DNA of 64,000 nt, taken from positions 64,001 through 128,000 of the IMG/VR virus record IMGVR_UViG_3300023049_000574; one strand, 5' to 3'. Both the position numbers and the translations under genes were made by a program. The notes below the pieces were generated by a model, which had not been told where the DNA came from, made no database searches, and saw only the letters and a list, made by a program, of their open reading frames with translations. Below are positions 37,753 through 52,625 of the stretch, piece after piece (position 1 is the stretch's first letter; every line of letters begins with the position of its first letter). The DNA is from a virus.

Positions 37753-38096
37753 TGGAAATAATAGAAATAGAGAGAGAACCACCCGTTGCTGACGAGTCAA
37801 TAAGAGGGTGGGTGTTCCAAATAATTCGACAACAAGTTTTTCTGTTAGCGGTAGATGATCATGCTATAGAATCATTAACTATGAGCGATGATATATATGA
37901 GCTATATGATGATCTAAAAGCCCACTTCTATTTTGAAATAAAGAAAAGCCATGGTCTTAAATATTCTGATAATTTAGAAACAGAATATATGTTTGATTTT
38001 ATAGTTAAAACCAATAAGATAGATATATATTATATAATAAACAGGGATATTAGAAAAGAAAGAGATGGTTATATTAATAGTATATTAAACAGTTAA
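37752..38096 (+). CDS. Hypothetical protein with RD tag
   Basis: Ends RDGYINSILNS. Confidence 0.55.
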   Translation: MEIIEIEREPPVADESIRGWVFQIIRQQVFLLAVDDHAIESLTMSDDIYELYDDLKAHFYFEIKKSHGLKYSDNLETEYMFDFIVKTNKIDIYYIINRDIRKERDGYINSILNS

Positions 38097-38158
38097 TTGG
38101 GGATATCGATTACCCGTAGAATACAATAAAAGGAAATAAAATATAATATATAGGGTAT

Positions 38159-38689
38159 ATGAAAAAGATATACTCTATATTACTTATTTTAGTACTTTCG
38201 ATATTACCTATATCACTTAATTCGAGTGAAATGGGAAACCCTGATGCTATTAAGTTCGGATCAATAAAAGCTGCTATGAAAAGTGGGCTGTTCACGTTAA
38301 TGAACACGATTGATCTTACGGGTTGGATGCCATCTGATAATAGTCAAAGTGGATATGGGAAAGGTAGATTTTTCTACAAAGTATCACGAACTGTATCTCC
38401 CGATAAAGGCGGTTACTATTATTTTGAGATAAGATTCTTATCTGATAGTTATTATCCTGCTAATTATTATACTAATGGTCAAGTAACAAGGTCTGCTACT
38501 AAGATAGATGTTATGTCATTGTTCGTTAATGGACAACCTACTATTAATATGTTAACTAATAGTCAAACTTTTTGGTTATTATTCCAAGGGAATTTTGACA
38601 GAGGTACAGGAGATTTGGGAATATATTTTAAAGCAAACAATCCTAATTCTAGGATAGATCTTAGATGGACGCAACCAAAACCTTATTAA
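38159..38689 (+). CDS. Secreted/periplasmic protein with signal peptide
   Basis: MKKIYSILLILVLSILPISLNS; TAATATATA at 38144. Confidence 0.6.
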   Translation: MKKIYSILLILVLSILPISLNSSEMGNPDAIKFGSIKAAMKSGLFTLMNTIDLTGWMPSDNSQSGYGKGRFFYKVSRTVSPDKGGYYYFEIRFLSDSYYPANYYTNGQVTRSATKIDVMSLFVNGQPTINMLTNSQTFWLLFQGNFDRGTGDLGIYFKANNPNSRIDLRWTQPKPY

Positions 38690-38693
38690 AATC

Positions 38694-39074
38694 ATGGCAG
38701 AGAAAAAAGAAAAATATGACGGTGATTATAAAGTAGGTTTATCTGACCAAGGAAGGATATCATTTAATCTGAATTGGAAATGGGCAGTTACTATAGCTAT
38801 TACTATATTGGGGTTTGTTTTATATTTAGTAATAGACAAGTATCATACTCAACCAATGAACGAACTGAAAGAGAAAAATATCGAACTTAGAAGTGAATTA
38901 AGTAAGATGAAAGAGAATAATGGTAAAGCTATTAACACGTTAACAAATAACCAAGGTATTCTTTTGGATAGAAGCGAAAGAACTCAAATGTTTATCAATA
39001 GATGGTTCAACGAAAATGATGATCAACCTGCTGCTGAGATCCAACCATTAGATCATAATACACCAGGAAATTAA
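38694..39074 (+). CDS. Single-TM coiled-coil protein (lysis role possible)
   Basis: WAVTIAITILGFVLYLVI followed by a coiled coil. Confidence 0.5.
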   Translation: MAEKKEKYDGDYKVGLSDQGRISFNLNWKWAVTIAITILGFVLYLVIDKYHTQPMNELKEKNIELRSELSKMKENNGKAINTLTNNQGILLDRSERTQMFINRWFNENDDQPAAEIQPLDHNTPGN

Positions 39075-39102
39075 ACTTTTTTTAATTTTATAATATATTA
39101 GT

Positions 39103-39522
39103 ATGTTTAAAATAATATTCAAAATAGCAGACTTTGCTTCTAAGGAAATAAAAAGGGATTTTAATATTGATCAAATATTAGAAGATTCCGAAAAAAAGTT
39201 TGATGATATAACAGAATATAATCAATATGTACAAGTAATTGAAAGGATATTCGAAAAAAACCAAAAACTAAATTTATACGGAAATGATTATAGTATCAAT
39301 GATTTAAAAACCATTACTACATCTAATTTATCCAATATAATATTAGAAGTTACTGTAATAGAATTTACTCCCCCAATAGATTGGGATCTAATAAATAAAG
39401 AATTAAATAGTAATAACAATTGGTATTTTACCTATGGTACAGGAACGACCAACCTACATGGTAATACTACTATGGGTGGTGGAACACAACAACTAACGAA
39501 TAATTATAATAATGCAGTATAA
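39103..39522 (+). CDS. Hypothetical protein, paralog 1 (RDFNID near N-terminus)
   Basis: KEIKRDFNIDQILED. Confidence 0.55.
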   Translation: MFKIIFKIADFASKEIKRDFNIDQILEDSEKKFDDITEYNQYVQVIERIFEKNQKLNLYGNDYSINDLKTITTSNLSNIILEVTVIEFTPPIDWDLINKELNSNNNWYFTYGTGTTNLHGNTTMGGGTQQLTNNYNNAV

Positions 39523-39886
39523 ATTAACATATGATGTAAACAGTTGCTCTAAAGAATTAAAAAGAGATTTTAATATTGATTCTGTTATGAGTGAAGATGA
39601 TTTATCTTTTTCTACATTAAAAGAATTTAAGTCCTATGTGGATCTTTTAAAAGAAATACAAAACGATAATTCTAATATAACTATCAATGATATTATATTC
39701 AGAATAAATCAACTAAATTATTCTATTTATGATAATACTACCTTTTGTATCATTAAGCTTTATTGTGTAGATGATAAGTATATAGACGAGGATGATGATA
39801 GAGGTGAGAATGTTTATAAGTATAGCTCCACGAATATAGATTCTTTAATACAAGCTTATACTAAAGCAGTTAATAGTCCTATATAA
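39512..39886 (+). CDS. Hypothetical protein, paralog 2
   Basis: KELKRDFNIDSVMSED. Confidence 0.55.
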   Translation: MQYKLTYDVNSCSKELKRDFNIDSVMSEDDLSFSTLKEFKSYVDLLKEIQNDNSNITINDIIFRINQLNYSIYDNTTFCIIKLYCVDDKYIDEDDDRGENVYKYSSTNIDSLIQAYTKAVNSPI

Positions 39887-39887
39887 T

Positions 39888-40202
39888 ATGGAAGAAACTA
39901 ATTACAAAGTATGTTTTATATTATCTAATAAGAATCAAAAAAATATACTAAGAGATTATAATCTTAACCTTATTGATAAAGATAATTTCAAGAATGAGAT
40001 ATATTTCACTTCCCCATTAGATATGAAAACTTATTTAGAGTTTTATAAAAAAGGAGATAGGGTAAATTTCAATGATATGTTATTTTATATTGAAGATATT
40101 TCATGTAATATGACAGATGGTAAGATTAATTTTGATATTAAGTTATTATATTTTAATACTCTTGAAGAAGATGGAAGTATGTACGGAGAAGTGTGGAGGT
40201 AA
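39888..40202 (+). CDS. Hypothetical protein, paralog 3
   Basis: NILRDYNLNLID. Confidence 0.5.
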   Translation: MEETNYKVCFILSNKNQKNILRDYNLNLIDKDNFKNEIYFTSPLDMKTYLEFYKKGDRVNFNDMLFYIEDISCNMTDGKINFDIKLLYFNTLEEDGSMYGEVWR

Positions 40203-40621
40203 TGAAAAGAATTTCACCAAAATATATTAAAGAACTAAACGAAAACGAAATATTTGTTTTTGGTAGTAATGAGGGCGGTAGACACGGAAGGGGTGCTGCT
40301 AAGTTAGCCTTAGATCAATTTGGTGCTATATACGGACAAGCCGAAGGTTTACAGGGATCTTCATATGGTATTCCCACTAAAGACAAAACAGTAAAAATTA
40401 CTCTTACTACAGAAGAAATCCAAAAGTATGTTGATAATTTTATTACCTTTGCGATTGATAACAACCATTTAATATTCCTAGTAACGGAAATAGGGTGTGG
40501 TTTAGCGGGGCATGATCCAAGAGACATTGCGCCTCTGTTTAAGAAAGTGAAAAGTGTAAAAAATATTTATTTACCCGAAAGGTTTTGGGATAATTTAGAT
40601 CTCTATGAAAGTATATTATAA
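40202..40621 (+). CDS. Macrodomain-like phage protein
   Basis: IFVFGSNEGGRHGRGAA, GLQGSSYGIPT, FLVTEIGCGLAG. Confidence 0.65.
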   Translation: MKRISPKYIKELNENEIFVFGSNEGGRHGRGAAKLALDQFGAIYGQAEGLQGSSYGIPTKDKTVKITLTTEEIQKYVDNFITFAIDNNHLIFLVTEIGCGLAGHDPRDIAPLFKKVKSVKNIYLPERFWDNLDLYESIL

Positions 40622-40717
40622 AATAAAAGATGAGTTTTCGGAGTTAGATTTTTAAAAAAATAATAATTATATTTGCAAAATAATTAAACAAAAGACAAAA
40701 AGTTTTATATATAGAGT

Positions 40718-40777
40718 ATGAAAATAATTAATGTAAATAGTTCGGTATCACGTATAACTTCTAGGAGTAGAGGGTGA
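40718..40777 (+). CDS. Attenuator leader peptide 1 (MKIINVNSSVSRITSRSRG)
   Basis: 19 codons with 5 Ser (AGT, TCG, TCA, TCT, AGT) and 3 Arg (CGT, AGG, AGA); TTTTATATATA just upstream; followed by a terminator and Arg/Ser tRNAs. Confidence 0.8.
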   Translation: MKIINVNSSVSRITSRSRG

Positions 40778-40804
40778 TATTACTATGTACATAACTTATA
40801 TAGG

Positions 40805-40836
40805 AAAAGCCTTCTACTTTAGTAGAGGGCTTTTTT
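40805..40836 (+). terminator. Attenuator terminator 1
   Basis: AAAAGCCTTCTAC-TTTA-GTAGAGGGC-TTTTTT; its 5' strand can instead pair with AGTAGAGGG at 40766-40774. Confidence 0.85.
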
Positions 40837-40845
40837 CATTTATAT

Positions 40846-40925
40846 GCTCCTGTAATCGGCTCTAGCTACGAACTAGATACCCGTAATCGGAATTGAAAAT
40901 GTGGGTTCGAGTCCCCCCAGGAGTT
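40846..40925 (+). tRNA. Non-canonical tRNA-Arg(ACG), no D-arm
   Basis: Acceptor GCTCCTG/CAGGAGT; anticodon arm TCTAG-CTACGAA-CTAGA; T-loop TTCGAGT; only 8 nt between acceptor and anticodon stems. Confidence 0.65.
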
Positions 40926-40933
40926 CAAAACAC

Positions 40934-41022
40934 GGAGAGGTGGCAGAGCTTGGTTTATTGCACTAGTCTTGAAAACTAGCATACTGTAAAAGGTATCGAG
41001 GGTTCGAATCCCTCCCTCTCCG
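40934..41022 (+). tRNA. tRNA-Ser(TGA)
   Basis: GGAGAGG/CCTCTCC, G73, CTAGT-CTTGAAA-ACTAG, long variable arm, GGTTCGAATCC. Confidence 0.93.
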
Positions 41023-41027
41023 CAAAT

Positions 41028-41116
41028 AGTAGGGTGCATGAGTGGCTTAAGTGACTTGCTTGGAAAGCAAGTGATCGTGTAAAAGCGATCCGTGGGTTCG
41101 AATCCCACTCCTACTA
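41028..41116 (+). tRNA. tRNA-Ser(GGA)
   Basis: AGTAGGG/TCCTACT, CTTGC-TTGGAAA-GCAAG, long variable arm, GGTTCGAATCC. Confidence 0.9.
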
Positions 41117-41120
41117 CAAA

Positions 41121-41209
41121 GGTGAGTTGGCAGAGTGGACGATTGCGCTTGTTTGCTACACAAGTGATCGTGTAAAGGCGATCCGAGGGTTCGAATCCCT
41201 CACTCACCG
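41121..41209 (+). tRNA. tRNA-Ser(GCT)
   Basis: GGTGAGT/ACTCACC, G73, CTTGT-TTGCTAC-ACAAG; variable arm nearly identical to that of Ser(GGA). Confidence 0.92.
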
Positions 41210-41254
41210 CTAATAAACAAAAGGGTTATTATTGATATAATAATTAAAAAAGTA

Positions 41255-41569
41255 ATGGGAAATAATATTAAAAAAATAGACATTAAAGAGTTTAGAGAAA
41301 AAGGATACTTACAAGAAGTTAACCGTATGTTTTTACATCCATTGGGATTAGTATTATCAGTATCAGTTGATGATAATGCTAATGAAAAATTAGATGGTAT
41401 TTGGGATTATAGAGATGATGAAGAAGGGATCATTTATGATATAGCTAACTCAGATACAGATAGACAAAATAGATTCAAAAAGAACATATCATTCATCAGC
41501 GATGAGTTAGAAGGAAGAAAGGAAAGGAGAAAGGAAATCCTTGGCTTCGATATAGAAAAAGTAAAATAG
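41255..41569 (+). CDS. Hypothetical protein
   Basis: GYLQEVNRMFLHPLGL; AAAC-N17-TATAA at 41215-41240. Confidence 0.6.
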   Translation: MGNNIKKIDIKEFREKGYLQEVNRMFLHPLGLVLSVSVDDNANEKLDGIWDYRDDEEGIIYDIANSDTDRQNRFKKNISFISDELEGRKERRKEILGFDIEKVK

Positions 41570-41571
41570 TT

Positions 41572-42066
41572 ATGGAAGAGTATAATAAAAACACGTATGT
41601 TGAGAATATAAAGATACAAGGTTATCTCACTAAGGAATATGCTATTCATAAAAATGGGGAAGTTAGAGAAAAGATAGATCGTTTAATGGATGTAATTAAC
41701 AACCAAAGAAAAGAAAGAGATATCGAGCGTTGGGAAAATCTTAATATGGAATTCAAAGAACCATGGGATGTTCCTTCGCTTCCGAGAGATGAAGAATTAA
41801 TGAATAATTATGTAATTCCTGCATTATATAGATGTGGTGCTATAGCTAAAAAAGACTTAAAGAAAGACCATTATTATTTCGGGAAGTATAGAAACAGCAA
41901 TTATGGTAAATGGAATGGTGAAAAATTTGAAATACAAAGATATGAATGGAATGTATTAGTTGATGATGATTGTTTTCACTTCGAAGACGATGACGGATTC
42001 GCATTATTTGTTCCTATAAGAGAGGTTACTGAAAAGGAATTCTTAGATAGAGAATTAAATATATAA
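41572..42066 (+). CDS. Hypothetical protein
   Basis: ORF within a co-oriented gene run. Confidence 0.55.
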   Translation: MEEYNKNTYVENIKIQGYLTKEYAIHKNGEVREKIDRLMDVINNQRKERDIERWENLNMEFKEPWDVPSLPRDEELMNNYVIPALYRCGAIAKKDLKKDHYYFGKYRNSNYGKWNGEKFEIQRYEWNVLVDDDCFHFEDDDGFALFVPIREVTEKEFLDRELNI

Positions 42067-42083
42067 GAAAAAGAACTTTTATA

Positions 42084-42503
42084 ATGAAGAAGATAAAGAA
42101 TTTCGAAGATTTCATAAACGAATCAATATACGGTGCTGACGTAGCCGATCCTATGGTAGAAAAAGAATGGGATGATCTATACGAAGAAGCCAAAGAAGAA
42201 CCAATTAAATCTAAGATCAAAGAGATGTTAGTTGAGATATATAAAGATAAAGACACTTTAGTTAAAGTTGCAGACCTTTTTGAATGGAGTGATGGATCTA
42301 ATGGTATCATTAACTTCAATGAATTAGACCACTTTTTAACAGACGTAGGATATAAATGCTACGCAGATGATCCTTCTAATATAGAAGACCTAGAAGATTT
42401 CAAAAAATGTATCCTATATGCATATGCTTCTACGGATTTAGGATATAAAGGAGAAAAACATAGAGATCATCAATATGATCCTAATAACGAATTTTCTTGG
42501 TAA
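42084..42503 (+). CDS. Hypothetical protein with MKKIKNFEDFINE N-terminus
   Basis: Member of the N-terminal motif family. Confidence 0.6.
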   Translation: MKKIKNFEDFINESIYGADVADPMVEKEWDDLYEEAKEEPIKSKIKEMLVEIYKDKDTLVKVADLFEWSDGSNGIINFNELDHFLTDVGYKCYADDPSNIEDLEDFKKCILYAYASTDLGYKGEKHRDHQYDPNNEFSW

Positions 42504-42522
42504 TTTTTAGTACTTTTGTGTC

Positions 42523-43065
42523 ATGAACACAAAATACGTAGAAACTTATATTAATAATATTCCTTCAGACTTACCTAATATTATTAATTGGGAAGAAAGA
42601 GAAGATGCGCCTAGAAAGGAGATTTTCATGGCAAATGAGGAATTGAGTTATACCTATGGTATGGGTAGAGGAATTAGAACATATGATTCTGTACCCATGA
42701 TACCTTTTGTCAAGGATGTAATGGATAAGATCAATTCGGATTATAACTATAACTTAGATATCTGTTTCTTAAATTATTATAAAAATGAAAAAATGTGGTT
42801 GGGTTGGCACTCTGATGACAGCCCTGAGATCGATCAAACTGAACCTATTGCGGTGGTCAGCATTGGCGCAGAAAGAGATATTTGGGTAAAGACTAAAGAC
42901 TATAAAGGAGTCATTCCTGATGAATGGAGATTTAACCTGAAAAGTGGATCTTTATTCATGATGTTAGCAGGATTTCAAGATAATCATTTACATAAAATTC
43001 CTAAATGGGATAAGAAATGTGATTGGAGAACATCATTAACATTCAGGAAATATAAGAAAATTTAA
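42523..43065 (+). CDS. alkB: AlkB-family 2OG-Fe(II) dioxygenase
   Basis: CFLNYY, GWHSDD, SIGAER, HKIPK, RTSLTFR. Confidence 0.88.
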   Translation: MNTKYVETYINNIPSDLPNIINWEEREDAPRKEIFMANEELSYTYGMGRGIRTYDSVPMIPFVKDVMDKINSDYNYNLDICFLNYYKNEKMWLGWHSDDSPEIDQTEPIAVVSIGAERDIWVKTKDYKGVIPDEWRFNLKSGSLFMMLAGFQDNHLHKIPKWDKKCDWRTSLTFRKYKKI

Positions 43066-43088
43066 TACTTTTTTCTTATATTTGTACC

Positions 43089-43490
43089 ATGGACATACTA
43101 TTAGACTACACAGGAGAGAAAGGAATCGGCTTTAAAGCTGCTAACTTTTACTTAGAAAACGATCAATCTATCTTCTTGTTAGGATATGATACGTTAGCTG
43201 ATTTATATGTAGTGCTGAATATCAAAGAGAATAACGAAAAGTTCTATTGGTGTCAATGTAAGATTTTCAGAGATGAGAAACACTATGAAGAAATCATCAA
43301 TAATCTAACTCCCGATTCTTTACATCAAGTGACTTCTGTATATCAAGATGGATATCCTGATGGGTTTTTTGATAACGTTAATAAAGTTAATTCACAGAAA
43401 TTGGATTACTTCCTTACTGATTCGACATTAGAACAATACAACTATCTAAAAGATGCGGATTTATATCTAGAACATAGTTATAGTAAGTAG
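43089..43490 (+). CDS. Hypothetical protein
   Basis: TATATTTG at 43077-43084. Confidence 0.55.
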   Translation: MDILLDYTGEKGIGFKAANFYLENDQSIFLLGYDTLADLYVVLNIKENNEKFYWCQCKIFRDEKHYEEIINNLTPDSLHQVTSVYQDGYPDGFFDNVNKVNSQKLDYFLTDSTLEQYNYLKDADLYLEHSYSK

Positions 43491-43683
43491 AACTATTAAA
43501 ACCAAGTTTATAATGTGTTTAAAGGTGATAATTTTTTGATTGGTAACAAGCATAAATTCAGGGAAGTAAAATGCTATGTTGATTAACTATTACTAATGTT
43601 TGAATATAAATAATAATGGTTATATTTGTATAAATTATAATAAAAGGTGCAACATTATAATATAATAAACTTTATATAATATT

Positions 43684-44031
43684 ATGACTTTTTTAACTTT
43701 TTTACACACATTAATAGATATTTTCCTACTTATTGTAGCACCTTTGATGATACTTTCATACGAAGTATTAACGTTCAGTGATAAGATAATAGGAAAGACT
43801 AATGAGGACGGAGTAGTTTCGCCTTTTTATTCTATGTGCGAATCTATGTATTTGTTATGGATTGTAATGGCTTATTTGTTCTTAGAGAATAGAAACGCAG
43901 TAATAATATTAGTGTTAATCAGTATTTTAGGAATCTTCTTTGGGAAGTATAAAGCCTTTAATATCTTTGATAATATCTTATCTATAATAATAGTACTTTA
44001 TGTAGTAATATTGAACTTTAAATATTTTTAA
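43684..44031 (+). CDS. Multi-TM membrane protein
   Basis: About four hydrophobic helices. Confidence 0.55.
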   Translation: MTFLTFLHTLIDIFLLIVAPLMILSYEVLTFSDKIIGKTNEDGVVSPFYSMCESMYLLWIVMAYLFLENRNAVIILVLISILGIFFGKYKAFNIFDNILSIIIVLYVVILNFKYF

Positions 44032-44049
44032 ACTAAGAACCTAGAAAAC

Positions 44050-44649
44050 ATGATTACAAGTATATCGAAAGAATTGAACCCAATTGAAATACCTTTCTTT
44101 GAGGGTGAGGTTAGTATGCTACCTTTTGATTTAAGTGATTTATCAACTCTACCTATAGAGTTTAGACAGACAGCAAAACAAATGATTAAAAACTTACCGA
44201 ATAAGGTAGGAGAGGCGTTCTTAACTATACATGGAAAGTTTGTTAAAAAAACTAAAACATTAAGACGTGGCGCACCCCATATCGATGGTAACTATTTAAA
44301 AGAAGTTGCTTCTTGGGGAAATGGTGGTGGAAACGGATGGAAGGTCGGTGAAAATGGTATGCAGTTAACAAGTAAAGAACACGCTATTTCTTACGAGAAT
44401 AAGAAAGGTGGGATGTTAATTGCTTCTGATTACTCGGCTTGTAAAGGATGGAATGGTGTATTTAATGATAAAGCAGGAGTCGGAGGCGATTGTAGCCATT
44501 TAAACTTAGATGATGGTTTTATGTTAGAAGCTAATAAAGTATATTATAGTAACTCTCAGTTCGTACATGAAAGTCTACCATTAGATAAAGACGTACATAG
44601 AGTTATGTATAGAATCACATTACCTATTGAACACGAATTTAAAGCATAG
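44050..44649 (+). CDS. 2OG-Fe(II) oxygenase-like protein
   Basis: RRGAPHIDG ... VHES ... HRVMYRI. Confidence 0.65.
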   Translation: MITSISKELNPIEIPFFEGEVSMLPFDLSDLSTLPIEFRQTAKQMIKNLPNKVGEAFLTIHGKFVKKTKTLRRGAPHIDGNYLKEVASWGNGGGNGWKVGENGMQLTSKEHAISYENKKGGMLIASDYSACKGWNGVFNDKAGVGGDCSHLNLDDGFMLEANKVYYSNSQFVHESLPLDKDVHRVMYRITLPIEHEFKA

Positions 44650-44653
44650 TAAT

Positions 44654-45010
44654 ATGAAAGTAACAATAGATAGAACGTTTAATTATGGTTTTAGGCAAAT
44701 ATGGCTCAGAAAGGATTTTGAGCTTCCCTACACCCCTTTCTATGGTATGTGGATCATAGATCAAGATAATGACCAAGAAATCAGTTTAGAACTAGTTAAT
44801 AACAGCTATGTAGCTACTATGATCAACTATTACCCAACAGAAGAAAAAACTACTATTGATATTAGGGAGGTTTGGAAACAGCCTGTAACAGAAGAAACAG
44901 TTGATGATATATTAGAAAGTTATACTAAGGCGGGTTGGGAAAGAATGGATCTTACTGATGCTGAGGAAATGAAAGAATTTATGCACGAACAATATTTAAA
45001 AACCAAGTAA
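44654..45010 (+). CDS. Hypothetical protein
   Basis: Start MKVTID. Confidence 0.55.
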   Translation: MKVTIDRTFNYGFRQIWLRKDFELPYTPFYGMWIIDQDNDQEISLELVNNSYVATMINYYPTEEKTTIDIREVWKQPVTEETVDDILESYTKAGWERMDLTDAEEMKEFMHEQYLKTK

Positions 45011-45567
45011 TGGGAAAATTAGACATAAGAATGGATGAAATACTTGATAGTATTTCTGAAAACGGAATAAATAATTTATCAAAAGAAGATAAGTTATTTT
45101 TAAAATATGAATCAGATGGAATGGATTATCAAAGTATAATCTATAAAATACATATAGAACTTAATCCTAAAGCAGAAGAAGAAAGGAAGATTAGTAATGA
45201 TATACTTAATATTTGTTTTCCTACTCCTGAGGAAGAAGGAACAACAGAGGATGAATTTCTTTATCGTTATAAATTGAGTGGTAAAATATATGCTTCTCTT
45301 GGTGAGAATTGGACTGAGGGGGAATATGATTTTAATTTAGGTCCTTCAACAACGAGAAACAAGTTGAGTGATGCTATTTTTATTGACGAATATTTAAAAG
45401 ATATTTGCCGAAAAATAAACATTAGTGAAAACACATTTGATGTTGGTATCGCTGAAAACGTTCATATGATATATGCTAATTCTGAGGACGAAGCTAAAAA
45501 AATAATTGGTCTTATTTTAAAGGAGATCAAAGCTGATGGATTTGAAATTGAATACGCAAAGACATGA
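45010..45567 (+). CDS. Hypothetical protein with N-terminal DUF6576-like motif
   Basis: MDEILDSISENGINNLSKEDKLFL. Confidence 0.55.
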   Translation: MGKLDIRMDEILDSISENGINNLSKEDKLFLKYESDGMDYQSIIYKIHIELNPKAEEERKISNDILNICFPTPEEEGTTEDEFLYRYKLSGKIYASLGENWTEGEYDFNLGPSTTRNKLSDAIFIDEYLKDICRKINISENTFDVGIAENVHMIYANSEDEAKKIIGLILKEIKADGFEIEYAKT

Positions 45568-45920
45568 TAAGAGAAGACTCAAAATATGTAGTTAAAGATC
45601 TTGGTTTAAAAGATATTGAATATTATGATGCTACTATCGATTATAAAACTAAACTAATCGCTTTGATTAAGTTTATCAGTGATAAAAAGGCTTGGTATTA
45701 TATATGTGATGATTTTATTGTAGCTTATCATAAGAAAGAAGGTATAGTGATTAGTACAAGTGATGTAGTAGATTCGTTATCTATTCCCGATATTAGGAAT
45801 AAGCTATCCCCTATTACACATATGATCTCTTTGTTGAAGATAGATAATTGTCCTCAGGGATATATTAAGGATTCAATTAAGTCAGCAGAGAAGGCAGTAA
45901 AAGATTTAGCACAGTTTTAG
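45564..45920 (+). CDS. Hypothetical protein; C-terminus weakly HisKA-like (DIRNKLSPI, no His)
   Basis: ORF within a co-oriented gene run. Confidence 0.5.
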   Translation: MIREDSKYVVKDLGLKDIEYYDATIDYKTKLIALIKFISDKKAWYYICDDFIVAYHKKEGIVISTSDVVDSLSIPDIRNKLSPITHMISLLKIDNCPQGYIKDSIKSAEKAVKDLAQF

Positions 45921-45968
45921 TAAACTTTTGATAAGTTTTTCAATAAGATATTTAAAAGAAATATAGAT

Positions 45969-46541
45969 TTGGAACTACTTATTATTACAGGAATGCCCTA
46001 TTCGGGAAAAGGCACACAATGCGAATTTTTAAACGACTACTTAGGATATAAGCATATCTCTATGGGAGATGTTTGTAGAGCAGAAAAAGAAAAAGGAACA
46101 GAACTCGGTAGAATAATGTCTGAGTATCATGAAAAGGGTAACTTAGTTCCTAATAAATATATCGAAGAAATATTTGAAAATCTTATTATAGATAATATTG
46201 ATGAAAAAGGAATCATCTTAGATGGACACCCTAGAACACTTTCACAAGTAGATCAGATAGTTAGTATGATCGATAAAATTCACGTACAGAACGTAATCAA
46301 TATTGATGTTGAAGAAACAACTCTTTTAGAAAGAGCTAAAGAACGAGCTAAAAATTCTGATCGCCCTGATGATAAAAACCCCGCCATTCATCTAAAGCGA
46401 ATAGAAGTATTTAAAGAAAGCACTCTACCTGCAGTTGAATATATGAGTAAAATAATGCCATTTGTGAACATTGATGGTAATGGATCAGTTGAAGAAACAA
46501 GAGAGAAGATAAAAGAAAACATATTTATCTTTGAGGATTAA
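45969..46541 (+). CDS. adk: Adenylate kinase (short LID)
   Basis: GMPYSGKGTQ, HISMGD, ILDGHPRTLSQ, RPDD; TTG start. Confidence 0.9.
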   Translation: MELLIITGMPYSGKGTQCEFLNDYLGYKHISMGDVCRAEKEKGTELGRIMSEYHEKGNLVPNKYIEEIFENLIIDNIDEKGIILDGHPRTLSQVDQIVSMIDKIHVQNVINIDVEETTLLERAKERAKNSDRPDDKNPAIHLKRIEVFKESTLPAVEYMSKIMPFVNIDGNGSVEETREKIKENIFIFED

Positions 46542-46551
46542 TATATACTCT

Positions 46552-47364
46552 ATGAAGTATATAAATAAATTCAATGAAAAGGTAACCGCAGCATTATTAC
46601 CCACTGAACTAAGACATAAAAACCTTTTATATCATTCTACTGATTTAGAATCATTTAAGAAAATCATAGAAAGTGATAAATTATACGGAACAGTTCAGTA
46701 TGATTGGGGCATATCTACTTCTAGAAATAAACATTATGCTTTTGGGAGAAACGACACTGATTATGATGTGATACATGACGGTGGTGATGTTCAATTAATA
46801 TTAGATCGAGATTTAGTTAAAAGACACCATAAAATAAAGGCTTATGATTGGGAAGAATTTAAAACAACTAAAGGTAAAACAGGTGTATATCATGATTATA
46901 TACAAGCAGAAGATAAGATATTAGCTAATTCATTAAAAAATGTAACGAAATATATAGTAGGTATTCATATAGTTAAAGACAAATTTATTGATGATATATT
47001 TGAAGACCCAATTATTAAAGACAAACTTTTAAGTAAGGATATAGTTGTGTTTAATGAAGATTGGGAAATAATATTTAATAGCAAAGTTAAAAATACTGAT
47101 ACCGAATTCGAAAAAATTAAAGATTCTAAATTCAATAGATTACCTGATTTAACTTTATCGGAAATAGTAAATAATTGGGATGACGTTAAAGACATAGAAG
47201 ATGATAATATTGAAACTATTAAATATTATGTAGACAACAAAGAACTATTACCTAAACAAATTCTAACATATGACAAAAAGGGATTATCTGATGGTTATCA
47301 TAGACTGATAGCTATGAAGATAGTAGGTGTAGATAAGTTTAGGTATAAAATTGATAATTGGTAA
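46552..47364 (+). CDS. ART-fold-like protein with C-terminal ParB-like motif and MKYINKFNE N-terminus
   Basis: LYHST...GISTSR...QAED; C-terminal LSDGYHRL; TAATATATA at 46539. Confidence 0.5.
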   Translation: MKYINKFNEKVTAALLPTELRHKNLLYHSTDLESFKKIIESDKLYGTVQYDWGISTSRNKHYAFGRNDTDYDVIHDGGDVQLILDRDLVKRHHKIKAYDWEEFKTTKGKTGVYHDYIQAEDKILANSLKNVTKYIVGIHIVKDKFIDDIFEDPIIKDKLLSKDIVVFNEDWEIIFNSKVKNTDTEFEKIKDSKFNRLPDLTLSEIVNNWDDVKDIEDDNIETIKYYVDNKELLPKQILTYDKKGLSDGYHRLIAMKIVGVDKFRYKIDNW

Positions 47365-47385
47365 TTAATTCTTATATTTGTTTTT

Positions 47386-47700
47386 ATGAAAGTATATATA
47401 GCAAGTCCTTACACTAAGGGCGACACTGCAATAAACGTTAAACGACAATTAGATACATTTGATATACTAATGGATAAGGGATATTTTCCTTTTGCTCCAT
47501 TGTATAGTCATTTCCAACATATGGCACACCCAAGACCATACGAAGATTGGATGACATATGATTTAGAATGGATATTAGTGTGTGATTGTGTACTACGTTT
47601 AGATGGCGAAAGTAGTGGTGCGGATAGAGAAGTCGCACATGCTAAAGAACACGGAATCCCCGTGTATTATTCATTAGAAGAATTATACGCAGCTACTTAA
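47386..47700 (+). CDS. DUF4406/nucleoside 2-deoxyribosyltransferase-like protein
   Basis: VYIASPY...CDCVLRLDGESSGADREV. Confidence 0.7.
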   Translation: MKVYIASPYTKGDTAINVKRQLDTFDILMDKGYFPFAPLYSHFQHMAHPRPYEDWMTYDLEWILVCDCVLRLDGESSGADREVAHAKEHGIPVYYSLEELYAAT

Positions 47701-48122
47701 TGGATCTAACTAAATATAATAACGATCTAAGTGATGTCACTGATTATTTATCAGAACTAGGATTATCTAAGTTAAAGGATAAACATGATGGTAGATACAA
47801 TAAATATAGTGTTCCTAAAGCAGACTTCGAAATACATGTATATAGTTTTATAAAGCAAGGTGACTCAGATTTATTTAAATATTGTGGTGATGAATTATTA
47901 ACTTTAGATATTGTTAGAAGGTTCATGAATATAAGTCATGAAGAATCCAAAGAATTCACAAAAGATATTAAAAGAGATATCCATATCATTAATATAATAC
48001 CTAAAGGATCTAGAGCAGGAATGGTTACTATAACCAATCTAGAAGATTTAGATAACTACTTAGTGGAATATATTCCTTTTTATAAAAGGGATACTAGAAT
48101 AAATAATATTTTAAAATTATAA
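47700..48122 (+). CDS. Hypothetical protein with RD tag
   Basis: Ends RDTRINNILKL. Confidence 0.55.
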   Translation: MDLTKYNNDLSDVTDYLSELGLSKLKDKHDGRYNKYSVPKADFEIHVYSFIKQGDSDLFKYCGDELLTLDIVRRFMNISHEESKEFTKDIKRDIHIINIIPKGSRAGMVTITNLEDLDNYLVEYIPFYKRDTRINNILKL

Positions 48123-48800
48123 ATGGATTTTTTCAAATTAATTTCAAGAGAAAATGTAGGTAAGACTTTCCATATTAAGTTCTTACCCGCTATTGGATCA
48201 GATGATATAATAGATAACTATCCTGTACCTTTTGGTAAGTATCATAAACAAATATACGTTTCTAATGCTATGGTTAACGGAGAGTTTAAACAACTTGTAT
48301 ATAATCAAGTGATGAGGGACTTTTTACAAATATTCTTTCTTGGGACGAGGGGATATATCATCCATCCTGATCCTGAAAAATTAGATTGTGATATAACATA
48401 TAATCATCATAGAATAAATACTACTCTTGAAAACGTATATTTAGATTTAGAGAATAGATATGATGTTACAAGAGATGAGTTAATATATGTTGACTATCCT
48501 GATAATGTACACCCATTTAATATATTATATCCTGCTAATAATGAATATATAATTAATCCTTATAGCTTTAAACTTACTGTAAGGGAGATAACTCTTTTTG
48601 GAACAAGTGGTTTATTAGATTTGGGAAAAATCGAAACGGTTAAATATGATCCTAATTTAATAATTAAAGATCAGAGTGATTCTACTATTAACGAAGCAAA
48701 CGATTTTATGAAAAGCAAACCTAGTTTAGAAGGATTGGCTAAGTATTATGTGGAAGCATACCACAGAGATAAATTCATCGATGATGTTTTAGAAGGTTAA
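48123..48800 (+). CDS. Hypothetical protein with RD tag
   Basis: Ends RDKFIDDVLEG. Confidence 0.55.
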   Translation: MDFFKLISRENVGKTFHIKFLPAIGSDDIIDNYPVPFGKYHKQIYVSNAMVNGEFKQLVYNQVMRDFLQIFFLGTRGYIIHPDPEKLDCDITYNHHRINTTLENVYLDLENRYDVTRDELIYVDYPDNVHPFNILYPANNEYIINPYSFKLTVREITLFGTSGLLDLGKIETVKYDPNLIIKDQSDSTINEANDFMKSKPSLEGLAKYYVEAYHRDKFIDDVLEG

Positions 48801-49045
48801 TTAGAATAAGATATGATGAAAAAGATACTATTAAAAAATATCTTAAAAATTTATTGAATATTAAATAAATTTTCTTATATTTACAGTCCTAATAAAAAGA
48901 GGTAAAGTAGAAACTTCTTATTCTGACTTTTTAATAAGGAGGAATATTGTATAGAATGCTAGAGTAAACTAGAAATCTCTTTTTATTTTTAAACTTTATT
49001 ATATTTACATCCTATAAGGAGAAGAAAACTTTTATATATACAACA

Positions 49046-49117
49046 ATGACAACATTAAATAACATAGCAATTATAGCGAGAGCGAGAGCTTTTAACAGAC
49101 CCCGAATTGGAGTGTGA
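49046..49117 (+). CDS. Attenuator leader peptide 2 (MTTLNNIAIIARARAFNRPRIGV)
   Basis: 23 codons including the run ATA GCA ATT ATA GCG AGA GCG AGA GCT; TTTTATATATA upstream; followed by a terminator and Ile/Arg/Ala tRNAs. Confidence 0.8.
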   Translation: MTTLNNIAIIARARAFNRPRIGV

Positions 49118-49140
49118 CTATAATTAATATGTCAATTTTT

Positions 49141-49179
49141 AAAACCTCAATTCGGATTTCCGAGTTGAGGTTTTTTTTT
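49141..49179 (+). terminator. Attenuator terminator 2
   Basis: AAAACCTCAATTCGG-ATTT-CCGAGTTGAGG-T9; CAATTCGG can instead pair with CCGAATTG at 49102-49109. Confidence 0.88.
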
Positions 49180-49219
49180 GTTATAGATCATCGGGTCGCA
49201 AATTGCGACCACAATAAAT

Positions 49220-49296
49220 ACTGACGTATCCCCGATGTCTTATATACATCATGAAGGTAGCGGTTGAAAACGTGGGTTCGAATCCCACCGTCAGTA
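49220..49296 (+). tRNA. Non-canonical tRNA-Ile(TAT), no D-arm
   Basis: ACTGACG/CGTCAGT, A73, GATGT-CTTATAT-ACATC, GTGGG-TTCGAAT-CCCAC. Confidence 0.7.
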
Positions 49297-49304
49297 CAAA
49301 ATAT

Positions 49305-49384
49305 GCATCAGTATCCGAGGGGAGCTTCTAACTCCTTATCCGTAATTGGAGATGAAAATGTAGGTTCGATTCCTATCTGGTGTA
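49305..49384 (+). tRNA. Non-canonical tRNA-Arg(TCT), no D-arm
   Basis: GCATCAG/CTGGTGT, GGGAG-CTTCTAA-CTCCT, GTAGG-TTCGATT-CCTAT. Confidence 0.7.
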
Positions 49385-49394
49385 CAAATTTTAT

Positions 49395-49469
49395 GGGGTG
49401 TAGCACAGGCGTAGCCTAAATCGTTTGCAACGATTTCAGAACAACAGGGTTCGATTCCCTTACACTCCA
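49395..49469 (+). tRNA. Atypical tRNA-Ala(TGC), possible 8/4 fold
   Basis: GGGGTGTA/TACACTCC with G3:U70 and A73; AATCG-TTTGCAA-CGATT; 4-bp T stem AGGG/CCCT. Confidence 0.7.
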
Positions 49470-49475
49470 CTAAAT

Positions 49476-49552
49476 GGTTCGGTAGCTTAATTGGATAAAG
49501 CAATCGGTTTCTAACCGATAGAGTGAGAGTTCGACCCTCTCCCGAATCACCA
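49476..49552 (+). tRNA. tRNA-Arg(TCT), canonical, with encoded CCA
   Basis: GGTTCGG/CCGAATC, D-loop TAATTGGATA (A20), ATCGG-TTTCTAA-CCGAT, ACCA end. Confidence 0.92.
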
Positions 49553-49559
49553 AATATAT

Positions 49560-49630
49560 GGGGGTTTAGCTCAGTCTGACCGTAAGCGGCACATTTGCAA
49601 TGTGCGTCACACATCGATTCGAAGAAGTGT
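49560..49630 (+). pseudogene. Degenerate/truncated tRNA-Ala(TGC)
   Basis: GGGGGTT-TAGCTCAG 5' half and GCACA-TTTGCAA-TGTGC arm are intact; T-arm degenerate; no 3' acceptor strand. Confidence 0.55.
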
Positions 49631-49823
49631 AAAAATATAGAATATGAAAATGAAACTAAAAATACTAACGTTAGATGAACTAAAAGAAAGAATTAAAACA
49701 TTCGATAAAAAATATGGAAAATATTATGAAAAAGAATAACAATAACTTAGGAGGACACCGCTACCAAGCATTGATACTCGACACCAAAGGAAACTAAAGA
49801 AATATTCTAAGAACTTCTTAGAG

Positions 49824-50234
49824 ATGTTTAACTTTTTCCTCAATAGTCATAGGAATGGGATATTAACCTTTTCGGGAACAAATGATTTCAGTGTCGAGTA
49901 TAAACAAGATGGATATGATAGTAGGTTATGTTTTAGGAAGTTTGATAATGGTGATTACCAAAACAAAGTTGTACATACTAAACACCCTAATATACTATTT
50001 AGTGTAATTAAAGGAAAGAAGTCATGGGGTCTATTTGTTAATGAATGGTCAGATGGAATCGTTGAATCTAGCTTTACTATCGATGAAATTAAAACAGTAT
50101 TCGATGAACAGAATATCAAAGTTCCCGATCCATTATGGAAAGACTTTTTAAACACAATTGGTAGAAAGAAAAGGATAAGAAATCAAAAATACTACAATGA
50201 GCTTATTAAAAATAGTATTATTTCCAATACTTAA
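49824..50234 (+). CDS. Hypothetical protein
   Basis: 136-aa ORF. Confidence 0.5.
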   Translation: MFNFFLNSHRNGILTFSGTNDFSVEYKQDGYDSRLCFRKFDNGDYQNKVVHTKHPNILFSVIKGKKSWGLFVNEWSDGIVESSFTIDEIKTVFDEQNIKVPDPLWKDFLNTIGRKKRIRNQKYYNELIKNSIISNT

Positions 50235-51012
50235 AACTCTTAACAGTCATTTCTGATCCGTTATGAGGATGTCCCTTATTAACACTCGTACCTATAATCG
50301 GTACTAAACCACCTTTGATTCTTTCTAAAATGTTCTTATTAGTTATCTTTCTAACTAAGAAACCATCGTAATATAATTCGATTTTATCATCGTTCCATAT
50401 AATAGCAAATGATACATCACGTCCAAATTCGTTTGGAATATAGTGAGTGTGTGCGCCAATATTTTTAGCGTTATCACCATAGTCTTCACCATAATGTATA
50501 TTGGTCTGTGGTTTAGATTTAGTTGCTTTATTTTTTGTATAAATTTCTATAACATCTATTTCAGGTAGAACTTTATAATCCAATTCTTTTTCTGTGCCAT
50601 CTGTTACGAACCATAATGGAGCATGCCAAATACCTGTGGCTGCTTTCATATTAACTATAACTTCCATAGCACCTTTAAAGTATGTTTTCTTACTAAATAA
50701 GATACCTGTTTTAAAGTCCATTGTCTTATTGTTCTTCTTGTTTAACTTAGGGCTAAATTCTGTTGATAACCTTACACCACCTTCTACAAGGTTAGTACAT
50801 GACTTATCGTTATATGATAGATCAGCATCGTCTGAATGTGTTCCCCACCATAAAGTTTTTTGCCACTGTTTAGTTAGTTTACTGAAGTCCTCATGTACAT
50901 CAAGTGTTAATCCCTTAGGATCAAAATCTTTAACCTTACTAGAAAGTCTTCTTCCTATGTTATTTTTATATAACAAGTAATAATTATATAACTTTTCTTT
51001 TAAATTTCCCAT
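50218..51012 (-). CDS. GH16 glycoside hydrolase (beta-glucanase-like)
   Basis: GIWHAPLW...PEIDVIE catalytic motif; WNDDKIELYYDG. Confidence 0.85.
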   Translation of the reverse strand: MGNLKEKLYNYYLLYKNNIGRRLSSKVKDFDPKGLTLDVHEDFSKLTKQWQKTLWWGTHSDDADLSYNDKSCTNLVEGGVRLSTEFSPKLNKKNNKTMDFKTGILFSKKTYFKGAMEVIVNMKAATGIWHAPLWFVTDGTEKELDYKVLPEIDVIEIYTKNKATKSKPQTNIHYGEDYGDNAKNIGAHTHYIPNEFGRDVSFAIIWNDDKIELYYDGFLVRKITNKNILERIKGGLVPIIGTSVNKGHPHNGSEMTVKSFKYWK

Positions 51013-51049
51013 ACTTTATATATTATTTTTTCAATTTAATATATAGCTT

Positions 51050-51622
51050 ATGAAGTATATTAAACCCTTTAATGAATCTATTAAATTCCCTGAGATTGAT
51101 GATATGTATACTAGACACAATCAGCTAAAGGTAAATAAAGATAATATTCAAGAAGAAATAAATGACATAGAACACAGACTTATTAAAACACAAGACGAAT
51201 ATATTAGTAAAATCGAAACTATATTAAATAAAGTTGTAGAACATTTTAGAATGAATGTTACATCAAACAAGGGGATAATGATAATAAAAACACAAAATGA
51301 TATTATACGACATGATACAAAAGAAAATGATGATGTATTCAATTTGTCTAACTTGGTTGATAATTTTAAATTTAAAACCGCTTATCCAGATAATCCAATT
51401 GAGGTAACACAAGAAGAATATGTGTTATATGATATTTTTGTAGAAAGGTCTATTAAAGACGGAAACAACGGAAACACAAATGTATTTTATTTGATTCCTA
51501 CTTATGATGAAAATGAACTTCATCTTCATTTAACTTATATTCATGTTAAGGATTTGATGAAGTTATATGAAAGATTAGTAAAGAATATTTCAGGTAATAT
51601 GTTAATGAAAATAAATAATTAA
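51050..51622 (+). CDS. MKYIKPFNE-family protein, single-domain paralog of the KKLNE family
   Basis: TAATATATA at 51037; ends LMKINN. Confidence 0.6.
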   Translation: MKYIKPFNESIKFPEIDDMYTRHNQLKVNKDNIQEEINDIEHRLIKTQDEYISKIETILNKVVEHFRMNVTSNKGIMIIKTQNDIIRHDTKENDDVFNLSNLVDNFKFKTAYPDNPIEVTQEEYVLYDIFVERSIKDGNNGNTNVFYLIPTYDENELHLHLTYIHVKDLMKLYERLVKNISGNMLMKINN

Positions 51623-51626
51623 ACTA

Positions 51627-51920
51627 ATGAAAAATATAAAAACATTTGAATCATTTATAGACGATCAGGGTAATATCAAAGACTTCAATCATAAAACATA
51701 TATTATAATTTCCAAGAAACATATTAATAATTTATATTTATCTCAATTAGATCCACCAAGGTTTACGGGAGAGAGTAGCGCAATGAGGAAAACTTATCAT
51801 TTCCCTTCATTAGATGATGCTTTAGAATATAAATCTAAACACCCTAAAAGAAATAAACATTGGAGTATACACGAATATAACCCAACTAAAACGATTAGTA
51901 TGGGTAATACGGTTGGTTAA
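51627..51920 (+). CDS. MKNIKTFE-family small protein
   Basis: N-terminal motif. Confidence 0.55.
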   Translation: MKNIKTFESFIDDQGNIKDFNHKTYIIISKKHINNLYLSQLDPPRFTGESSAMRKTYHFPSLDDALEYKSKHPKRNKHWSIHEYNPTKTISMGNTVG

Positions 51921-52625
51921 TTAATTAGACTTTCTATAATCGATTAAGAAATCATATAATTTTCTAATATTTTCATAGCTTGTACTATTCCTAAAAGCGT
52001 TTAGATCAGTAACCATTAACTCACCGTGTAGATCAAATAACCTTTTCCAATCATCAAATACGCCTTTATATTCAGGGTTATTTTCTACAAATCTTTCAAA
52101 GTTTGGTAAATTAATAACATCACCAATAAATATTTCAGATCGTGCTATATTACTTTGGTTTAAAGATCCATCAACTTCTATAATATTCTTAGAGTCTCGA
52201 TAAGCCTTTCCGATCTCTTTAGCTGAATGTAAATTCAATAAAGCTGTTTCCATATACTTAGATAGTGGTTCAACTAAGACATCATTACCTAATGTGGGTA
52301 TTATTAATTCTTCGAAATTCTCTAATGCTTTTTCGGCATTTTTAGTCTTAATCACTGTGATTAGATCTTCTCTTATCTTCTTAATAAGAGTATCAAGATT
52401 TTTTATGAACTCTTCGCTCTCATTATCCTTCTTCCAATCTCTGAAACCATTTGGGTTATCTATAAATTCATCTTGCTTCATATTCCAATCGAAATTATGT
52501 AAATAATGATGTCCGTATTCACCTCTTAGTGTTTTTAATACATCTTTAGGGAATGAATTAAAATCAACTAAATCCTTTGATTCTATATTATATTCGTTTA
52601 TCTTTGTAATTAAATATTTACCCAT
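51921..52625 (-). CDS. Hypothetical protein (MGKYLITKINE)
   Basis: TAATATATA upstream on the minus strand. Confidence 0.6.
   Translation of the reverse strand: MGKYLITKINEYNIESKDLVDFNSFPKDVLKTLRGEYGHHYLHNFDWNMKQDEFIDNPNGFRDWKKDNESEEFIKNLDTLIKKIREDLITVIKTKNAEKALENFEELIIPTLGNDVLVEPLSKYMETALLNLHSAKEIGKAYRDSKNIIEVDGSLNQSNIARSEIFIGDVINLPNFERFVENNPEYKGVFDDWKRLFDLHGELMVTDLNAFRNSTSYENIRKLYDFLIDYRKSN

Follow-up and report, generated by a model that had tools for sequence, protein, structure and literature searches.

A predicted leader-peptide attenuator precedes a tRNA cassette in the genome of an uncultured lake phage

The leader, terminator and tRNA array

The DNA analysed here (the window) is a stretch of 64,000 nucleotides (nt) from a phage genome, corresponding to bases 64001-128000 of the single-contig virus record IMGVR_UViG_3300023049_000574 (145,521 bases, 29.9% G+C). 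The phage is uncultured, and its DNA is present in several lake-water metagenomes. We focus on a candidate transcription attenuator that consists of a short leader open reading frame (ORF), an intrinsic terminator and an array of transfer RNA (tRNA) genes. All features are given in window coordinates and lie on the + strand.

The leader ORF (49046-49117) contains 23 codons, which are the ATG at 49046 and 22 further codons, and ends with a TGA stop at 49115-49117. The encoded peptide is MTTLNNIAIIARARAFNRPRIGV. A reading of this DNA made earlier from its letters alone (the sequence-only reading) had drawn attention to the run ATA GCA ATT ATA GCG AGA GCG AGA GCT in this leader. The run is indeed present, at 49064-49090, and forms a block of codons read by tRNAs Ile(UAU), Ala(UGC) and Arg(UCU), hereafter called the sensing block. 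The stop codon sits 23 nt 5′ of the hairpin of an intrinsic terminator (49141-49179), which is composed of a 5′ arm (49141-49155), a loop (49156-49159), a 3′ arm (49160-49174) and a T-run that extends to 49179. This sequence, AAAACCTCAATTCGG / ATTT / CCGAGTTGAGGTTTT plus the T-run, forms 15 base pairs, and nine T residues follow the hairpin. The fold of the leader and terminator stretch has a z-score of -7.5 relative to shuffled sequences. Leader and terminator are identical in contigs from four lake metagenomes (compared over 48800-49700), with no natural variants among them.

Behind the terminator lie genes for tRNA-Ile(UAU) (49220-49296), tRNA-Arg(UCU) (49305-49384), tRNA-Ala(UGC) (49395-49470) and a second tRNA-Arg(UCU) (49476-49552). 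The first two belong to a class with a rearranged D-arm that is described below and are not called by ARAGORN. The latter two are ARAGORN calls, and the second Arg gene is a canonical cloverleaf that scores 66.9 bits with the Rfam tRNA model. The sequence-only reading had listed two Ala(UGC) genes in this array, one of them as degenerate. The Ile gene, both Arg genes and one Ala gene stand, and the other Ala is a truncated Ala(UGC)-like remnant from 49560 to about 49625 that keeps the 5′ half and the anticodon loop and lacks the 3′ acceptor strand (alignment A2).

A whole-genome scan of this strand finds about 10 comparably strong terminators in 145.5 kilobases, two of which are directly 5′ of the genome's only two tRNA arrays. 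No promoter-like motif is present in the 40-nt gap between the terminator at 49141-49179 and the first tRNA gene. Across the 53 non-redundant units of the comparative set described below, the corresponding gap has a median length of 14 nt, and it carries a promoter-like motif in three units and none in the other 50. Because there is no promoter motif between the terminator and the first tRNA, read-through is the only evident route to these tRNAs. The 40-nt gap also contains a hairpin, GGTCGCA-AAT-TGCGACC (49194-49210), that is missing from homologous units, where the tRNA begins 2-11 nt past the T-run. This hairpin could be a site of processing, or a relic.

The last five codons of the leader include a candidate antiterminator strand (segment 2), CCCGAATTGGAGTG, at 49101-49114, which can form a duplex of -12.4 kcal/mol with 49143-49155. 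Its core, CCGAATTG(G)AG at 49102-49112, is complementary to terminator positions 49146-49155. The complementarity between the 3′ end of the leader and the 5′ strand of the terminator, recognized in the sequence-only reading, is borne out by folding. Specifically, we folded the region 49088-49159, which corresponds to the RNA 3′ of a ribosome that has stopped within the sensing block, at a time when the 3′ arm of the terminator is not yet made, and the antiterminator is the minimum free energy (MFE) structure (-12.4 kcal/mol). The sensing block ends 12 nt 5′ of the antiterminator, and its last codon starts 14 nt before the first paired base at 49102. The TGA stop ends 3 nt 3′ of the antiterminator, and therefore a terminating ribosome would cover it. 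In the MFE structure of the untranslated leader (49041-49159), the sensing block pairs with the spacer that follows the stop codon and the terminator arm is left free, although this fold is weak (z = -2.06 relative to shuffled sequences).

A sister unit, attenuator 1, occupies 40703-41210 and comprises a promoter block, a leader at 40718-40777 (MKIINVNSSVSRITSRSRG) and a terminator at 40803-40836. Downstream of position 40836 are tRNA genes for Arg(ACG), which is of the rearranged-D type, Ser(UGA), Ser(GGA) and Ser(GCU). Its antiterminator, AGTAGAGGGTG, has a predicted energy of -12.6 kcal/mol. To evaluate codon composition, the codon usage of 118 long ORFs of this genome served as background. 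The leader at 49046-49117 (leader 2) carries cognate codons at 8 of 22 positions by strict wobble rules, or at 9 of 22 when GCT is counted, compared to an expected 2.4-2.7 (binomial P = 1.4e-3 to 6e-4). The codon GCG, which is rare in this genome (0.26%), is used twice. In the leader of attenuator 1 (leader 1), 6 of 18 codons are cognate (P = 1.2e-3). When the pairings are crossed, such that each leader is scored with the array of the other, neither result is significant. At this locus alone, however, a codon match beyond chance is suggestive only.

Comparative analysis of leader-terminator-tRNA units

The sequence-only reading had considered two instances in one genome sufficient to make coincidence unlikely. 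By themselves these instances are suggestive only (P ~1e-3 each), and it is the comparative tests that decide the matter. Relatives were sought by several routes. When the DNA of 48800-49700 was compared with phage records, the sole match covered 122 nt of tRNA in three Vibrio phages. The 225-aa (amino acid) protein encoded upstream has no match among phage records and no IMG/VR relative, and Pfam searches with nine large proteins of the window revealed no lineage marker. A 142-aa macro-domain-like protein encoded 5′ of attenuator 1 was rejected as a marker of kinship because it is widespread. A degenerate pattern based on the N-I-A/S-I-I codons of the leader returned chance coding matches only, with the exception of one locus, L030. 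Given that there is no close deposited relative, the odd rearranged-D tRNA was used as a marker.

The tRNA marker pattern TGAAAAYGTRGGTTCGA identified 117 IMG/VR loci, approximately 100 of which have the same tRNA architecture, and a pattern specific for Ile(TAT) added 64 loci from metagenomes. Several marker loci carry a terminator tail right 5′ of the tRNA, and a Tyr/Glu leader (T-Y-Y-Y-E..) precedes Glu/Tyr arrays. Units were defined by a rule fixed before their tRNA content was seen. The rule calls for a hairpin and T-run at most 90 nt 5′ of a tRNA, and takes as leader the longest ATG-initiated ORF that has 15-45 codons and stops 15-45 nt short of the hairpin. Applied to the IMG/VR loci, the metagenome loci and this genome, it yields 104 units, including 83 with a leader. 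Removal of leaders more than 70% identical leaves 53 leaders from 39 loci.

A leader ORF is present in 80 of the 95 units that have 220 nt of upstream sequence, compared to 11.4 +/- 3.3 in dinucleotide shuffles. When the search window is offset to 400 nt upstream, a leader ORF is found in 13 of 88 cases. The fraction of leader residues with a corresponding tRNA downstream is 0.328, against 0.182 +/- 0.013 for permuted pairings of leaders and arrays, and none of 10000 permutations reaches the observed value. Every amino acid is commoner in those leaders whose array contains its tRNA, and the difference is at p < 0.01 for 15 of 18 amino acids. The correspondence extends to the level of isoacceptors. 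For example, the ratio of ATA to ATT/ATC codons in leaders is 44:20 before arrays that have Ile(TAT) only and 3:15 before arrays that have Ile(GAT) only (Fisher p = 1e-4). Likewise, the use of AGR versus CGN codons for Arg tracks the presence of UCU/CCU versus NCG anticodons (p = 0.03). Overall, 81% of the codons for matched amino acids are readable by an anticodon of the array.

The matched codons are also concentrated at a particular distance from the antiterminator. In 44 units, their share is 42-64% at -45 to -10 nt and 27% at -9 to -1 nt, compared to 12-21% inside or after the antiterminator and approximately 20% further upstream. To keep the antiterminator accessible, a ribosome has to stall within this interval of -45 to -10 nt, and the peak of matched codons lies where the ribosome footprint predicts it. 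Moreover, the best duplex between a leader and its own terminator 5′ arm averages -10.26 kcal/mol across units, versus -7.22 +/- 0.36 kcal/mol with the arms of other units (0 of 1000 reach the observed value), and the antiterminator is always located within the ORF, 3′ of the matched codons. These findings support the proposal, made in the sequence-only reading, that tRNA cassettes are each equipped with a codon sensor of their own, in that leader composition tracks the tRNA set and antiterminators fit their own terminators.

Direct homologues of the leader at 49046-49117 occur at four loci (L100, L026, L030 and L043), all of which share the GAAAACTTTTTATATATA block, an N-N-I-(S/A)..I-A opening, and a terminator followed by Ile(TAT). 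In L100, the sensing block ATA..ATA GCG AAC GGC GCG GGG precedes Ile(TAT), Gly(TCC), Gly(GCC) and Ala. The same sensing block in L026 precedes Ile(TAT), Gly(TCC) and Gly(GCC), where the locus ends. L030 has ATA..ATA GGG AAC GGC GCG ATA GCG GGC GGT GGG in front of Ile(TAT), Gly(TCC), Gly(GCC) and Ala, and L043 has ATA GCA ATA ATA GCG ATA GGC AAA GGG in front of Ile(TAT), Gly(TCC) and Ala. The leader in the window, which precedes Ile(TAT), Arg(TCT), Ala(TGC) and Arg(TCT), uses AGA in place of the Gly codons of its homologues, exactly where Arg(UCU) tRNAs replace Gly tRNAs. The terminator stem differs as well, with CTCAATTCGG in the window and CCCAGTCA in the homologues, and the last codons of each leader are complementary to its own stem. 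Consequently, the C-terminal peptide is not conserved, whereas the RNA pairing is.

Other arrangements are found in further units. Where Tyr/Glu and Ile/Gly/Ala arrays are joined without an intervening terminator, I, E, A, G and Y are combined in one leader (L162, L168 and L199), which suggests that leaders are merged or re-edited when cassettes fuse. An example of such a fused leader is MKTITNITIAIEAIGGYEAGY... Analogues of attenuator 1, with Ser/Arg leaders before Arg and Ser tRNAs, are present in L028, L199 and L165. In L028 the leader MKVMNTTSSSSSSRSSNKIRRW is followed by an array with Arg(TCG), Ser(TGA) and Ser(GCT). Finally, leader classes that are otherwise unrelated share the N-terminal theme M-(K/T/R)-x-x-N-x-N-I, as in MKTTNLNINL, MKNLNLNIVV, MKIINVNSS and MTTLNNIAI. 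This theme points to either common descent of a 5′ module or an initiation requirement on these messenger RNAs (mRNAs). The sequence-only reading had treated the two attenuators of this genome as unrelated in sequence and alike in architecture. The likeness in architecture holds, but the two are probably not fully sequence-independent, given their common promoter block and the N-x-N-I theme that recurs across leader classes.

Start context and promoter motifs

A conserved promoter-like block, GAAAACTTTTATATATA, is present at 49024-49040, and the same block stands before the homologous leaders of L100, L026, L030 and L043. The element TTTTATATATA at 49030-49040 is 5 nt 5′ of the leader ATG, and attenuator 1 has the same element at 40703-40713, 4 nt 5′ of its ATG. 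The sequence-only reading had included this element in the architecture common to both units. It is found in both, but it appears to be a genome-wide promoter-like motif for leaderless genes rather than a part of the sensor. In this genome, 33 ORFs of at least 40 aa are preceded by [TA]ATATATA at a spacing of exactly 4 nt from the start codon (other spacings, 2-5). Leader 1 has the 4-nt spacing, and leader 2 has a spacing of 5 nt, like three real genes. No Shine-Dalgarno sequence is present at the leaders, and the genes of the phage are likewise without one. The T-rich [TA]ATATATA motif is probably a phage promoter for leaderless or near-leaderless mRNAs. The leader mRNA would then be leaderless or nearly so, with a start context like that of the phage's own genes.

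Further upstream, a -7-like box, TATATTTA at 49000-49007, is an imperfect match to the Bacteroidota-type sequence TAnnTTTG. Attenuator 1 has a perfect match, TATATTTG, at 40668-40675, and TAnnTTTG is located 20-67 nt 5′ of the leader in 22 of the 53 non-redundant leaders. We take TAnnTTTG to be the -7 promoter box of Bacteroidota, and the presumed promoter role of 49000-49007 derives from this assumption. The TAnnTTTG box hints at a host from Bacteroidota.

The promoter-like block (TTATATTTACA..CCTA..TAA..AG) occurs in two copies 124 nt apart, at 48874-48899 and 48998-49020. The first copy is followed by no leader, just by a weak hairpin and T-run near 48961-48990, and may be the relic of an older unit.

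Proposed mechanism and alternative explanations

We consider it very likely that transcription of this phage tRNA cassette is gated by ribosome-mediated (leader-peptide) attenuation, which senses tRNA supply. The anatomy of the locus, its conservation, the covariation of codons with tRNAs, the complementarity of antiterminator and terminator, and the position of the sensing codons are all evident in the sequences compared. From these features we infer translation of the leader, its coupling to RNA polymerase, and how strongly and in which direction the unit responds.

Under this model, the promoter block just upstream would start transcription, so that the RNA would begin at the 23-codon leader or close to it, and a ribosome would read the leader while RNA polymerase heads for the terminator. 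With an ample supply of charged Ile(UAU), Ala(UGC) and Arg(UCU) tRNAs, the ribosome would reach the TGA stop and cover 49101-49114, which would permit the terminator hairpin to form and leave the tRNA genes untranscribed. Slow reading of any of the corresponding codons would instead stall the ribosome within 49064-49090, where it would melt the leader's own hairpin. The segment 49101-49114 would then stay free to pair with the 5′ arm of the terminator, the terminator would be blocked, and polymerase would read into the Ile(UAU), Arg(UCU), Ala(UGC) and Arg(UCU) genes. In the case where no ribosome is present, the leader would fold upon itself and termination would be the default. The net effect would be an anticodon-resolved negative feedback on decoding capacity, in which tRNA supply is sensed rather than amino-acid supply alone.

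Several observations weigh against this reading. The codon match within this single genome reaches just P ~1e-3 per leader, and ATA and AGA are the commonest Ile and Arg codons of this phage. A sensor does not account for the leader codons ATT (twice) and CGA or for the late AGA at 49097. The units are partly related by descent, and thus the permutation p-values overstate independence; what counts as independent is some ten separate leader classes together with the swaps inside families. The stop codon of some classes is up to 68 nt beyond the antiterminator, and therefore the step in which a ribosome parked on the stop codon covers segment 2 cannot hold everywhere. Lastly, the model assumes that translation and transcription are coupled in the presumed Bacteroidota host, and that the rearranged-D tRNAs are charged and used.

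The strongest alternative, which we nonetheless regard as highly unlikely, is that a constitutive insulator terminator ends an upstream operon, and that the short ORF is an independent gene for a small protein or small RNA whose product, and not its rate of translation, is what matters. In favour of such a gene, the start context of the ORF is the same as that of real genes, and the recurrent M-K/T-x-x-N-x-N-I theme could come from a role of the peptide or from the demands of initiation. However, an insulator leaves the tRNAs without an evident promoter. Furthermore, pairing to the leader's own terminator is conserved among homologues where the C-terminal peptide is not, the composition of the peptide shifts with the tRNA set, and the matched codons fall in a fixed window before the antiterminator.

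It is also quite improbable that the leader RNA binds tRNAs directly through displayed codons in a T-box-like manner that requires no ribosome. The regulated genes and the sensed species would in that case both be tRNAs, and a terminator/antiterminator switch is present, as expected for a sensor of this kind. Yet Rfam searches at E-values up to 1 identified neither a T-box nor another known leader family. In every case the cognate codons share a reading frame with an ATG and with a stop codon that is 19-45 nt before the hairpin, and up to nine different codons for three to eight tRNAs are arranged in series, which fits a ribosome better than a single specifier.

Because the ORF and the terminator are clearly linked, a translation-dependent switch with another logic could be considered, in which a stall promotes termination or RNA cleavage, or in which translation merely stabilises or processes the tRNA precursor. 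The distant stop codons of some leader classes give this idea some room, since the textbook geometry is not universal. We judge it to be very improbable because the sensing codons are positioned as expected for stall-induced read-through, and because the opposite feedback would switch the tRNAs off when they are needed. Coincidence, meaning that an AT-rich short ORF occurs by chance before an ordinary terminator and tRNA array, could draw on the abundance of ATA and AGA codons and on the modest single-locus P value, but all comparative tests and the within-family swap from Gly to Arg speak against it, such that this barely credible explanation is refuted as far as computation allows.

If the locus is a leader-peptide attenuator, a broader and more tentative idea, which is possible but somewhat doubtful, is that phage tRNAs are induced on demand rather than expressed constitutively. 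A cassette would respond to slow reading of its own codons and otherwise stay off, with leaders serving as detectors of damage or shortage and cassettes serving as exchangeable modules. Triggers could include a host tRNA pool that fails the AT-rich codons of the phage, or defences such as anticodon nucleases and tRNA depletion that remove tRNAs. A cassette would then comprise a sensor plus tRNAs, including the rearranged-D-arm Ile/Arg type, and its leader would be re-edited whenever the tRNA content changes.

Relationship to known attenuators

Leader-peptide attenuators are well established in Proteobacteria, where trpL, hisL, leuL, thrL, pheL and the multivalent ilvGMEDA and thr leaders control amino-acid biosynthetic operons. 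Like the trp, his and ilv attenuators, the phage unit has a short ORF with clustered regulatory codons followed by an intrinsic terminator, and a mutually exclusive antiterminator that would be covered by a ribosome at the stop codon. The weak fold noted above is a candidate for the leader self-pairing that makes termination the default in those systems. The phage unit also resembles the ilv and thr leaders in combining several codon types. Unlike the trp, his and ilv systems, the genes that would be regulated encode tRNAs instead of enzymes, and the leader codons follow the anticodons downstream (ATA versus ATT/ATC), so that isoacceptor supply would be sensed. In addition, the units reside in phage genomes and are modular, with one unit per tRNA cassette, their mixed codon sets appear to be re-edited as the tRNA content changes, and their leader mRNA would be leaderless or nearly so, with no Shine-Dalgarno sequence.

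The pheM leader of E. coli controls the pheST operon for phenylalanyl-tRNA synthetase. It therefore also places a component of the decoding apparatus under a leader written in cognate codons, but it responds to a single amino acid, controls a protein-coding operon and is chromosomal. T-boxes (Rfam RF00230) likewise monitor tRNA status and switch between terminator and antiterminator before translation-related genes. However, they bind uncharged tRNA directly and need no translation, whereas the phage codons lie in a frame that runs from ATG to stop. A cmscan search of 38000-52000 at E-values up to 1 found no match to RF00230, whose features are a stem I with a specifier loop and the T-box sequence.

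Leaderless polycysteine short ORFs of mycobacteria are described as cysteine-responsive attenuators in the abstract of a preprint (bioRxiv 10.1101/834739). To judge from that abstract, they resemble the phage unit in being leaderless short ORFs, rich in cognate codons, that control downstream genes, and differ from it in using a single amino acid and in controlling biosynthetic genes. The mechanism of leader-peptide attenuation is treated in PMC1183508 and PMC3082878. The one mention of a 'tRNA operon' in the latter is unrelated. As a further conceivable precedent, E. coli pheU/pheV was weighed and set aside as unconfirmed. No account of leader-peptide control of tRNA genes was found in full-text searches of the literature open without subscription. 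Leader-peptide attenuation is a known mechanism, and tRNA genes would be a new target for it.

It has long been asked why phages have tRNA genes. Proposed answers include compensation for codon usage, replacement of tRNAs lost in host shut-off, and evasion of defences that cleave tRNAs. A sensor composed of the codons read by its own tRNAs would indicate that there is selection on decoding speed at those codons, and read-through of the terminator would report which shortage the phage responds to, and when. The locus would also widen the scope of leader-peptide attenuation, which would then sense isoacceptor supply as well as amino-acid supply and operate in mobile, modular cassettes. Because the units are approximately 130 nt long and their specificity is apparently set by the leader codons, they would be candidate parts for sensing tRNA availability in vivo.

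Rearranged-D-arm tRNAs and other features of the array

In the Ile(TAT) gene and the first Arg(TCT) gene, the acceptor stem, anticodon arm and T-arm are normal, but 7-8 nt stand in the place of the D-arm, and a segment of 21-23 nt follows the anticodon arm. Neither 49220-49296 nor 49305-49384 has a canonical D-arm hairpin separating the acceptor stem from the anticodon arm. The Arg gene at 49305-49384 scores 33 bits with the Rfam tRNA model and forms row 1 of alignment A1. In this class the D-stem consists of two parts (10-11:47-48 and 12-13:37-38) that enclose the anticodon arm, and a D-loop-like TAAYTGGA sequence bulges from the 3′ strand. We collected 124 distinct sequences from viral and metagenome loci, nearly all of which are Ile (TAT 45, GAT 20) or Arg (TCT 26, TCG 18, ACG 4, CCT 3). 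Three members are located within the window, at 40846-40925, 49220-49296 and 49305-49384.

The class structure of alignment A1 is 96.9% paired, versus 62.8% in shuffled sequences and 41-46% in slid controls, and covariation is present in every helix, including pairs 10:48 and 11:47. This covariation supports the structure of the class, and the genes at 49220-49296 and 49305-49384 are real but non-canonical tRNAs. When bacterial genome contigs were scanned with the tRNA marker pattern, 4 of 120 matches had the rearranged-D architecture, all on contigs of metagenome-assembled genomes, and they gave no clue to the host. The class is a phage-specific tRNA type.

The tRNA-Ala(UGC) gene at 49395-49470 is atypical in that it is not reported by the Rfam tRNA model at E-values up to 1. 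The sole match there is to transfer-messenger RNA (tmRNA), at 16 bits. Matches to tmRNA at 49223-49299 and 49395-49472 were rejected as spurious because their scores of 16-19 bits compare with a gathering score of 47. The Ala-like remnant at 49560-49625 is called by neither ARAGORN nor Rfam. The region 49559-49620 is matched at approximately 85% by contigs of other phages from the same lakes, which indicates that an intact homologue of the Ala remnant exists elsewhere.

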